From IMG/VR virus record IMGVR_UViG_3300027734_000046, positions 62,001 through 120,190 of that record: a stretch of 58,190 bases of DNA; one strand, 5' to 3'. Under the pieces are notes generated by a model that saw only the letters and a list, made by a program, of their open reading frames with translations, had not been told where the DNA came from and made no database searches. Numbering within the stretch: the stretch's first letter is position 1; every line of letters begins with the position of its first letter. Below, one piece after another: positions 56,614 to 58,025 of the stretch. The translations under genes and the position numbers were made by a program. The DNA is from an uncultured virus (IMG/VR IMGVR_UViG_3300027734_000046). Its lineage: Duplodnaviria > Heunggongvirae > Uroviricota > Caudoviricetes.

Positions 56614-56644
56614 TTTACATTTTTTTATTTTTTATTATATTTAT
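56614..56644 (+). promoter_or_regulatory. Promoter for the zinc-ribbon gene
   Basis: TTTACA-16 nt-TATATT, overlapping ATATTTAT (56637-56644). Confidence 0.5.
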
Positions 56645-56661
56645 TTTATACGTTAACTCAC

Positions 56662-56717
56662 GTATTGGTATCGAGCTATAAGCTTTAGAGTTGTCTAGGC
56701 AACAAAGATATTAGTAC
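56662..56717 (+). ncRNA. Candidate structured 5' leader RNA (three-way junction)
   Basis: P1 GTATTGGTATC/GATATTAGTAC (11 bp, 3 G-U); P2 GAGCT-ata-AGCTT; P3 GTTGT-ctag-GCAAC; locally GC-richer than other intergenic DNA. Confidence 0.5.
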
Positions 56718-56747
56718 ATAATAACAAAAATTAAAAGTTAAAAAAAA

Positions 56748-57590
56748 ATGAAAAGAAGAATCTCTATCGGGGAACCGATATCTAATCCTACAGCACAAAT
56801 CTGTATCAACAAATCCAGACTTAAAGTCTACAACAAAGAAACCTCACCAACTTATTATTTAGAAAAAGGACAAGAGTTTCAAATCGAATTATTCAATCCA
56901 ACAAAAAACACACTTTTAGCAAAAATCCAATTAAATGGAAAAGCTATATCACAAGGTGGTTTGGTGTTAAAGCCTGGCCAACGCGTGTTTTTAGAACGCT
57001 ATTTAGATGTTGCTAAAAAATTCATGTTTGACACATACGAAGTATCAAATACAGAAGAAGTTAAAAAAGCCATCGAAGACAACGGCGATTTTAAAGTTGA
57101 ATTTTATAAAGAATCTAATCCAACCCTTGTATATGGTACGGTAACAACATATAATACAAACAATCGATTTACACTAACTGATAATTTTAATACTACAGCT
57201 CCTAATAATTACCTTAATCTTACTGGTAATATTACAAATACAACTTCGACGTATAGCTCTGGTATTGTAAATTGTAGTAATAGCTTTACTAATAATGTAA
57301 CCAATGATAGCTTTGAACCTATACAACAAAAACCAAGACTTAGAAAAAGCTTAACCAAAAGCATAGAAACTGGTCGTGTTGAAGCTGGAAGTAGTTCAGA
57401 CCAAAAATTTGAATATGTAAACAAAAGTTTTGATTACTACGCATTTCACACCGTAGAATGTAAACTACTACCAATATCACAAAAAATAAATACGGCAGAA
57501 GATATCAACGTAAAAAGATATTGCACAAACTGTGGGACAAAACAAAAACCAGAATTTAAATTTTGTCCTAGCTGCGGAGAAAAATGCTAA
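56748..57590 (+). CDS. Protein with C-terminal double zinc ribbon
   Basis: YCTNCG...FCPSCG at the C-terminus; N-terminal beta domain; T/N-rich linker. Confidence 0.8.
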   Translation: MKRRISIGEPISNPTAQICINKSRLKVYNKETSPTYYLEKGQEFQIELFNPTKNTLLAKIQLNGKAISQGGLVLKPGQRVFLERYLDVAKKFMFDTYEVSNTEEVKKAIEDNGDFKVEFYKESNPTLVYGTVTTYNTNNRFTLTDNFNTTAPNNYLNLTGNITNTTSTYSSGIVNCSNSFTNNVTNDSFEPIQQKPRLRKSLTKSIETGRVEAGSSSDQKFEYVNKSFDYYAFHTVECKLLPISQKINTAEDINVKRYCTNCGTKQKPEFKFCPSCGEKC

Positions 57591-57617
57591 AATAATAACT
57601 AGAGTTAACGTATTAAA

Positions 57618-57640
57618 AAAGCCCAGATTGTCTGGGCTTT
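57618..57640. terminator. Bidirectional intrinsic terminator
   Basis: AAAGCCCAGA-ttg-TCTGGGCTTT between convergent genes, with A/T tails on both sides. Confidence 0.9.
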
Positions 57641-58025
57641 ATTTATTTGGATATCTAATCATTGTATTTCTAAATCTAAAATCTTTATACTTACCAGTAT
57701 TTGAACCAAAACCAAATCGTTTATAGAAGCGTAATAAGCCTGTTTTAGAGCTTTCTGTGTCTTCTGGGGTCAATACACATAATAAACTATATTTATCACA
57801 CAGCGCCGTTATTTCCGTCATCAATGCTGTTCCTAACCCCTGTCTTCTTTGCGCCTTGTCTTTTACCTTGATTGAGGCTACTTCAATTGCATCATTGCCT
57901 TTCAAATATATCCAACAAGCCATACCCAATGCGTCATATTTTTGTATGATACTATCTAATTCTGTTTGAATTTTAAATCTTACATCATCTTCAACAACCT
58001 CTTGTAATATTTGTAATATTTTCAT
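57639..58025 (-). CDS. GNAT-family acetyltransferase
   Basis: IEVASIKV...QRRQGLGTALM (acetyl-CoA motif A)...LLRFYKRFGF. Confidence 0.85.
   Translation of the reverse strand: MKILQILQEVVEDDVRFKIQTELDSIIQKYDALGMACWIYLKGNDAIEVASIKVKDKAQRRQGLGTALMTEITALCDKYSLLCVLTPEDTESSKTGLLRFYKRFGFGSNTGKYKDFRFRNTMIRYPNK

Follow-up and report, generated by a model that had tools for sequence, protein, structure and literature searches.

Few RNAs are known to contain k-junctions as described by Wang et al. (2014, PMC4005666) and Li et al. (2023, PMC10573300). According to PMC10573300, they are present in the ribosome, no k-junction has a function beyond architecture, and in the TPP riboswitch the junction merely orients the internal loops, which bind the ligand. 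The TPP riboswitch core and the DUF-3268 RNA (PDB 8ITS), itself also a leader of unknown function, have in common with the phage leader RNA reported here, as far as those parts describe them, three helices of which two are coaxial without a linker, a bulged strand that ends in G-A with a purine-A on the opposite strand, and two bases 5' of the loop that pair with connecting bases. A second group of related systems is formed by messages whose two ends pair. In the Bacillus subtilis hbs mRNA (PMC5737220), as in the phage message, a long-range helix joins the two untranslated regions (UTRs) of one mRNA, with 14 bp in the case of hbs; in Staphylococcus aureus icaR (PMC3868564) the 3' UTR is likewise paired with the 5' region, and the pairing controls translation. 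The timP toxin mRNA (PMC13000454), to which we liken the phage leader, uses long-range pairing to free a sequestered Shine-Dalgarno (SD) sequence without RNA processing.

The window, the whole stretch of 58,190 nucleotides that was analyzed, is part of a 120-kb virus record (IMG/VR IMGVR_UViG_3300027734_000046), has 31.7% G+C, and contains large-phage genes. The three-way junction described below is placed in a 139-nt gap, among the longest inter-ORF gaps of the window, between a 117-aa open reading frame (ORF) and the ORF at 56748-57590. The features of the locus are the following.

56614-56641, plus strand: sigma-70-type promoter-like site, TTTACA-16-TATATT, 10 of 12 matches
56648-56659, plus strand: 5' strand, able to form 12 bp with 57602-57613 or 6 bp with 56736-56741
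56662-56672, plus strand: 5' strand of P1 (T helix), pairing with 56707-56717; double changes in 8 of 11 pairs
56673-56685, plus strand: P2 hairpin (C helix), no linker to P1, variable loop; double changes in 3 of 4 pairs
56686-56689, plus strand: J2/3, UAGA (consensus UNGA), proposed L2, L3, G1b, and A2b
56690-56703, plus strand: P3 hairpin (NC helix), variable loop; double changes in 6 of 6 pairs
56704-56706, plus strand: J3/1, AAA (consensus RAA), proposed 2n, A1n, and one extra A
56707-56717, plus strand: 3' strand of P1
56736-56750, plus strand: translation initiation region without an SD sequence; it includes AGUUAA (56736-56741), a possible partner of the 5' strand, and the ATG at 56748
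56748-57590, plus strand: ORF of 280 aa; Ig-like beta sandwich, Thr/Asn/Ser-rich insert, zinc ribbon
57602-57613, plus strand: 3'-UTR partner of the 5' strand, just before the terminator
57618-57640, plus strand: intrinsic-terminator-like hairpin

A preliminary description of this DNA had called the leader, at about 100 nt, unusually long for the window, and the distance from the promoter-like site at 56614-56641 to the ATG at 56748, together with the 139-nt gap, bears this out. Five promoter-like sites were found in the region versus 5.0 expected by chance; in 116 of 161 homologues a similar site lies no more than 80 nt from P1, a count made without a shuffle control. As such sites are at chance level, we infer a transcription start near 56648 with the help of those 116 homologues. 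The promoter-like site and the terminator-like hairpin suggest a one-gene transcript. RNA data came from one run (share 0.04), in which the contig of a relative less than 90% alike spans the leader and most of the ORF; start, strand, level, and expression cannot be read from such contigs. No tRNA or tmRNA was found in the window. A GNAT acetyltransferase-like ORF (57639-58025, minus strand) converges on the terminator. Elsewhere in the window, a long run of ORFs that by eye resemble glycosyltransferases, methyltransferases, and epimerases occupies 26582-46696, adjoined by very long tail-fibre-like ORFs at 1493-22864.

The fold at 56662-56717 that had been proposed from the window, an 11-bp P1 closing two hairpins, proved sound. 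Its minimum free energy is -14.9 kcal/mol (z score, -2.68; equaled by 2 of 200 shuffles), the opposite strand of the 56-mer folds at -4.0 kcal/mol only, and all of its non-Watson-Crick pairs are indeed G-U. P1 has a pair probability of 0.98 to 1.0 in the leader, and no pairing competes with it. For the covariation check, homologous leaders were aligned, with the window and 87 of 107 anchored leaders included and mis-anchored, insert-bearing, and near-duplicate leaders left out. In these 88 leaders 96.8% of cells are paired, compared with 35 to 48% when the strands are slid, and changes on both sides are seen in 17 of 21 pairs, a number reached in 0 of 500 shuffles. Because kinship inflates double-change counts, the counting was repeated on 44 disjoint pairs of nearest leaders, selected by their unpaired columns, a procedure that stands in for phylogeny-aware R-scape; 63 double changes keep the pairing and 8 break it, and slid controls keep 1 to 4. 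Covariation is thus far above chance and the fold is conserved. G-U pairs occupy 479 cells and A-C mismatches 5, which indicates that selection acts on the plus-strand RNA, as the G-U pairs of the window's own fold had been taken to suggest.

When linker lengths were left free, the best-energy junction had 0/4/3 unpaired nucleotides in 136 of 170 distinct leaders. A mismatch-tolerant parser with linkers set to 0, 3 to 5, and 3 reached -7 kcal/mol or lower in 163 of 169 leaders versus 1 of 87 shuffles. Among the 136 leaders, J2/3 reads U (129), a variable base, G (132), and A (136), while J3/1 reads purine (136; A in 102 and G in 34), A (136), and A (124). The loops of P2 and P3 vary in both length and sequence, and their stems covary. 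At the level of sequence comparison, our results show that the leader is a fixed 0/4/3 three-way junction on the plus-strand RNA.

Rfam 15 gave no window hits at the gathering threshold and three chance hits at E ≤ 10 (E 6.9 to 9.3), none of them on the fold; against 16 divergent loci it gave 13 hits, none on the leader junction. This agrees with the preliminary description, which had recognized no known riboswitch or ribozyme. Unlike the TPP core and DUF-3268 RNA, the leader matches neither of their Rfam models, the former of which we take to be RF00059. With the covariation, the asymmetry of G-U over A-C, and no Rfam match, the view that this is a conserved, uncatalogued, cis-acting plus-strand leader RNA is strongly supported.

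An alternative fold had also been proposed, in which CTTT (56683-56686) pairs with AAAG (56704-56707) and extends P3 at the expense of P2. The coordinates and the complementarity are correct, and the fold itself is refuted. It costs 7.1 kcal/mol (-7.8 versus -14.9), has a pair probability of at most 0.001, and scores no better than any of 500 shuffles, all of which reach the same level. Among 88 homologues, its C-G pair is disrupted in 60 and kept in 28, without a single double change; no more than 30 of 136 leaders could form all four pairs. Conservation of the U and A runs is accounted for by the junction, which they form.

The conserved bases of the junction point to a k-junction-like kink, in which P1 and P2 would be coaxial and tandem G-A and A-A/A-G pairs would cap P3. 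The layout matches that of k-junctions as presented in the sections of PMC4005666 and PMC10573300 consulted, with P2 as the C helix, P3 as the NC helix, and P1 as the T helix coaxial with P2, an assignment modelled on the E. coli TPP sequence given in PMC4005666; P3 would be capped by G1b-A1n and A2b-2n. On the non-bulged strand, the T helix adjoins the C helix without a linker in the 136 of 170 free parses. G1b and A2b lie 3' of the loop (G in 132 and A in 136 of 136) and are contiguous, as in the account of DUF-3268 RNA used here, and A1n is invariant (A in 136 of 136 at the second position of J3/1, in the register assigned here). In two points the leader seems to depart from the TPP core and DUF-3268 RNA. 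Position 2n is A in 102 of 136 leaders, including the window, and G in 34, whereas the k-junction consensus is G2n; an A-A pair at 2b-2n is known in the k-turn T. solenopsae Kt-23, cited in the portion of PMC4005666 consulted. Furthermore, a base, A in 124 of 136, stands between A1n and the third (T) helix, whereas k-junctions pass from A1n straight into the T helix; this extra A might pair with c2 or L1.1. Such a kink would probably serve as a rigid shape for protein binding and not as a ligand pocket. If the assignment holds, the family would add more than 160 distinct leaders, which can be synthesized for probing, to the few RNAs known to contain k-junctions.

These features bear on whether the leader is a metabolite- or ion-sensing riboswitch, with the junction as its aptamer and the 5' strand as its platform. 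The TPP riboswitch core does share the junction layout, by the description in the sections of PMC4005666 consulted, and the strand complementary to the ribosome-binding site adjoins P1. We nonetheless regard a small-molecule riboswitch as improbable, because conservation does not extend beyond the junction core and the two loops are free to vary. Each arm is a simple, short hairpin with a variable loop, whereas the TPP ligand, on the published account as cited, sits in internal loops; conserved unpaired bases are few and limited to the junction, with no conserved ligand pocket beyond the structural core; no aptamer-disrupting fold was seen, the competing pairings using the 5' strand outside P1; and a single, non-metabolic gene family lies downstream.

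Protein relatives of the downstream ORF numbered 3565 at 90% clustering and 2237 at 50%, and loci were taken from viral, metagenome, and genome contigs. The window's own 120-kb record, which is 34% complete, has one junction match, and five genomes of 288 to 362 kb have one strong match each, plus one match at E 0.86; a multi-copy regulon was rejected on these counts. When viral contigs were scanned for the pattern without reference to the protein, 78 matches turned up in 76 loci. The gene family lies within 1 kb of 56 of these, three more are true leaders (two at cut contigs and one before an inserted nuclease gene), and the remaining 19 lack the fold by inspection. In the genomes and contigs scanned, the junction therefore occurs only before this gene family, as an autoregulatory protein-binding leader requires, and this strict one-to-one link makes it plausible that the encoded zinc-ribbon protein senses the leader. 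Several genome-contig matches, including those in L248, L250, and L253, lie in bacterial or archaeal MAGs on contigs of up to 425 kb, which may be misbinned phage. Among GenBank phages, the gene is present in 22 records, 15 from Lak phages and 7 from uncultured phages of 462 to 735 kb. Nine of these were parsed: four best as 0/4/3 (three Lak phages and the 735-kb phage), two as 0/3/3, two as 1/5/3 (UUGA/AAA, with the first P2 pair opened), and one as 0/3/2.

The alternative pairing of this message lies outside the interval that the preliminary description had marked, which took in neither the 5' strand (56648-56659) nor its two partners at 57602-57613 and 56736-56741. Comparison of the two ends across homologues shows that the first 12 or so nucleotides of the leader are paired with a stretch of the 3' UTR immediately ahead of the terminator. 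In the window this end helix has a duplex energy of -16.0 kcal/mol, as opposed to -3.8 kcal/mol for the helix between the 5' strand and the start region, and its pair probability in the whole modelled mRNA is 0.68 to 1.0. Of 131 leaders, 98 have an end duplex of -10 kcal/mol or lower, and in 99 the duplex is better than 95 of 100 shuffles. When only Watson-Crick pairs were scored, 75 distinct end duplexes contained 12 G-U pairs and 1 A-C. The element is a covarying helix between the UTRs of one message, of the hbs and icaR type. We are nearly certain that the junction structure and the end-to-end helix are real. A DNA-level explanation, in which inverted repeats or a cruciform mark a mobile cassette, could account for the 12- to 16-bp inverted repeats that bracket the gene and for the mobile nuclease genes that insert at the locus, but it is extremely improbable and in large part refuted. 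The excess of G-U over A-C in both the junction (479:5) and the end helix (12:1) runs against it, as does the opposite strand, which does not fold; moreover, the repeats sit at the inferred transcript ends and are replaced by a loop-loop match in one clade.

The same 5' strand can pair with the start region, and the two pairings draw on overlapping 5' nucleotides in 97 of 98 leaders. The helix with the start region is weak, with only 21 of 131 leaders beating 95 of 100 shuffles and a probability in the window of 0.20 to 0.27. Where AAGG or GAGG precedes the start, CCUY is found in the 5' strand in 12 of 13 leaders versus 4 of 150 others, and this pairing occurs in three separate lineages of the protein tree. 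For 18 hand-picked clade representatives, the duplex of a leader with its own start region beats swapped duplexes (mean, -6.3 versus -3.4; 0 of 100000 permutations), and the own partner is ranked first in only 4 of the 18. Taken together, these sequence comparisons show that complementarity between the 5' strand and the ribosome-binding region is present across clades. The A-tract and AUG are unpaired at a probability of at least 0.84 in all models but one, the truncation at 56900, where the last AUG bases are at 0.58 to 0.64. By equilibrium folding, 56736-56740 is no more open in the full-length model (0.19 to 0.55) than in the nascent one (0.49 to 0.75), and no opening of the start region was seen in the full-length mRNA model. 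The stretches 56718-56741 and 57591-57610 are alike in that both hold AUAAUAAC followed by AGUUAA, as if the 3' UTR were a decoy of the start region.

We propose that the leader is a translational operator that licenses complete messages and is probably read by the encoded protein, and we put the probability of this reading at roughly 0.45. While the mRNA is being made, the 5' strand would close on the ribosome-binding region, aided by a protein bound to the junction, most likely the encoded Ig/zinc-ribbon protein, in a form of negative autoregulation. Once the 3' UTR is being transcribed, the 5' strand would be captured by the longer helix between the two ends, which would free the ribosome-binding region. 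Since the end helix would free that region, complete mRNAs from the gene's own promoter would be favored for translation. In the window, the weakness of the start-region helix and the folding results for 56736-56740 speak against a strong switch; further points against the operator are the kissing clade and the Lak leaders, both described below, and a protein fold with no recognizable relation to RNA-binding families.

A role in stability or processing would make use of the same end helix, which, stacked by P1, would hide the 5' end and the 3' UTR from ribonucleases or make an RNase III site, with the junction as a compact 5' block and translation not switched. We consider this unlikely, though it draws on the strong and well-supported end helix beside a weak 5'/start-region helix, on the position of that helix, which begins at the inferred first nucleotide, and on the precedents of B. 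subtilis hbs (PMC5737220) and S. aureus icaR (PMC3868564) as given in the sections cited. Left unexplained are the tracking of the SD sequence by the anti-SD, the invariant junction core beside variable stems, and a replacement junction inside a two-gene message, far from the 5' end, in L054 and L077. In both loci a nuclease cassette lies at the gene start (1060-1976 in L054 and 941-1970 in L077), whose ORF we take by eye to be a GIY-YIG-like nuclease. The original leader has been taken over by this ORF. At its end the cassette carries a second junction (UAGA/AAA), the 5' strand of which is complementary to the new start region (-5.4 kcal/mol in L054 and -8.2 kcal/mol in L077). The ORF behind the replacement junction is intact in L054, and L077 has no in-frame ATG at that place. 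Judged from these sequences, the internal junction copy would be easier to reconcile with translational control than with protection of the 5' end. The replacement leader is nearly the same in the two cassettes, although their ORFs differ.

Of 33 leaders with a weak end duplex, 19 were examined. Seven (L011, L024, L027, L034, L049, L052, and L056) carry inserts of 0.87 to 1.2 kb after the stop codon and keep the 3' partner and terminator 870 to 1200 nt further on, behind the insert. Two more have a hairpin insertion following the 5' strand, with the pairing undisturbed; for the rest no partner was found, the locus is cut, or the leader is of the kissing type described below. The insert of L049 has an antisense ORF with, by eye, a LAGLIDADG-like stretch. 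The gene appears as an insertion hot spot at both ends. In L024, L093, L100, and L159, an extra hairpin of 25 to 40 nt separates the 5' strand from P1, and neither of these elements has been lost. Lak leaders keep the junction and show neither the end duplex (-10 kcal/mol or below in 3 of 7 GenBank loci) nor the kissing contact, which means that the junction can exist without end pairing.

The kissing type was found among the 157 leaders that have enough 3' sequence for loop comparison. In 37, the P3 loop carries UCACGG or a variant and its complement lies downstream of the stop codon; the loop occurs alone in 3 and the 3' element alone in none. The complement is the terminator loop CCGUGA in 35 of the 37. 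These 35 loop-matching leaders form one clade (30 rows; SH-aLRT, 99) in a quick tree of 151 proteins, from which L077 and cut loci were left out, and none of 13 leaders of the clade that were tested has a 5'-end duplex. The other two, L182 and L238, show one compensating base change on both sides, with the partner single-stranded. Because the loops are invariant within the clade, they represent one or two events and not many. The end duplex has apparently been replaced in this clade by the match between the P3 loop and the terminator loop, and as its 5' strand has no 3' partner, strand displacement cannot be its mechanism. Leaders of the L169 type, which belong to this clade, have an additional hairpin separating P1 from the start region, and their 5' end is complementary to the bases immediately preceding the A-tract and AUG.

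That the kissing clade keeps its ends joined by a different contact suggests that closeness of the ends, and not strand exchange, is selected. This raises the possibility that a host protein binds to the junction (a ribosomal protein, for instance, via mimicry of an rRNA junction), or that the ribosome does, and that the joined ends return terminating ribosomes or new protein to the leader. k-Junctions do occur in the ribosome, as noted in the parts of PMC10573300 drawn on here. The explanation seems distinctly unlikely to us, given the single copy per genome, always before the same gene, across phages that differ in SD use, and no Rfam ribosomal-protein leader matches a leader junction.

The translational operator reading assigns a role to the encoded protein, which has a pI of 8.9. 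An AlphaFold2 model based on 140 sequences (pLDDT, 85) predicts an Ig-like sandwich, a disordered insert of about 80 aa rich in Thr, Asn, and Ser, and a C-terminal four-cysteine zinc ribbon. Pfam has no family over its cut-off for the window protein (zinc ribbon, 24.4 versus 25 bits), and Pfam and PHROGs give it only sub-threshold zinc-ribbon hits. The ESM Atlas returned hypothetical viral clusters, with leads under 0.9, and a weak search for longer fused forms gave one match. A fold search of the PDB had no match at E ≤ 0.001 and no recognizable RNA-binding family; the hits were tied Ig-like folds (best Z, 6.9; root mean square deviation, 3.2; 107 residues aligned), and because they are tied, a p53/CP2-like DNA-binding fold or a P35-like fold cannot be claimed. 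A viral structure library gave 19 matches at E ≤ 0.001, mostly to uncharacterized proteins of large eukaryotic DNA viruses. Named matches are WSSV Wsv390 (E, 8.7e-4) and ranavirus ICP-18 (E, 6.2e-3); the FV3 18K protein is described in the part of PMC3205390 cited as immediate-early and of unknown role. The structure-matched groups include nucleocytoviruses, nudiviruses, nimaviruses, and granuloviruses. On these models, huge phages and large eukaryotic DNA viruses apparently have an unnamed fold family in common. In the disordered insert (residues about 125 to 205), the motif [TS][MLA]D[SGN][LMFV] occurs in 31 of 170 homologues versus about 1 in shuffles, and the window protein has a looser T-N-D-S form. 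The motif resembles a caspase-type cleavage site, and Wsv390 is, we assume, a caspase inhibitor. That the window protein is a bait-loop protease inhibitor is speculative, and shared ancestry may explain the motif count.

A more far-reaching version, which we hold to be rather unlikely in its entirety, is a conserved operator of huge phages, Lak megaphages included. In it, the encoded protein would read a k-junction-like leader, and the mRNA would be licensed by closure of its ends, the trait under selection. If true, ends would be closed by a duplex that removes an anti-SD in most lineages and by a kiss between P3 loop and terminator loop in another. This would amount to a closed-loop checkpoint of bacterial type, at which complete messages are passed for translation, and the protein under control would have a fold common to early proteins of large eukaryotic DNA viruses. 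The leader also suggests that the dosage of a core gene of uncultured huge phages is tightly controlled, which offers a handle on the function of that gene.

No paper on this leader RNA was found in our literature search, with the supplements of PMC10573300, PMC5737381 and the PMC10690425 models outside its reach. Fremin et al. (2023, PMC10690425) catalogued 8,495 candidate RNAs of DNA viruses, which, like this family, include candidate phage leaders from IMG/VR. In the portion of that paper used here, DNAVirus_7176, DNAVirus_7511, and DNAVirus_8941 precede zinc-ribbon genes, and all three are gut-associated; the leader family, unlike them, is found chiefly on environmental contigs. One of the three, DNAVirus_8941 (76 nt, 11 sequences, mammalian gut), might correspond to the Lak-type form of the leader, as compared by description only, and the family as a whole may overlap the catalogue, a comparison made by description and not by model.

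Within the literature searched, the parts of this system have precedents in the k-junction and in hbs, icaR, and timP, and their combination has none. Compared with the TPP core and DUF-3268 RNA in the sections consulted, the leader is without ligand-binding internal loops and is coupled to pairing of its 5' strand with the 3' UTR. The hbs helix, by the account in the part of PMC5737220 cited, shields an RNase Y site, unlike the leader; the phage helix, unlike that of hbs, uses the inferred first nucleotides, adjoins a conserved junction, covaries across phages, and overlaps the strand complementary to the ribosome-binding site. Relative to icaR, as described in the cited portion of PMC3868564, the sign is opposite: the icaR 3' UTR blocks the SD sequence, whereas that of the phage pairs with a potential blocker of the start region. 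Unlike the phage leader, timP is a type I toxin-antitoxin system with a pseudoknot, according to the section of PMC13000454 used, and no antisense RNA or small toxin was seen here. Long-range pairing between bacterial UTRs rests on few single-gene cases, and here it covaries across many phages, tracks the SD sequence, and has apparently been replaced by a kissing contact in one clade. Since the end pairing is covarying, SD tracking, and replaceable, the role of closing a bacterial-type mRNA becomes directly testable.
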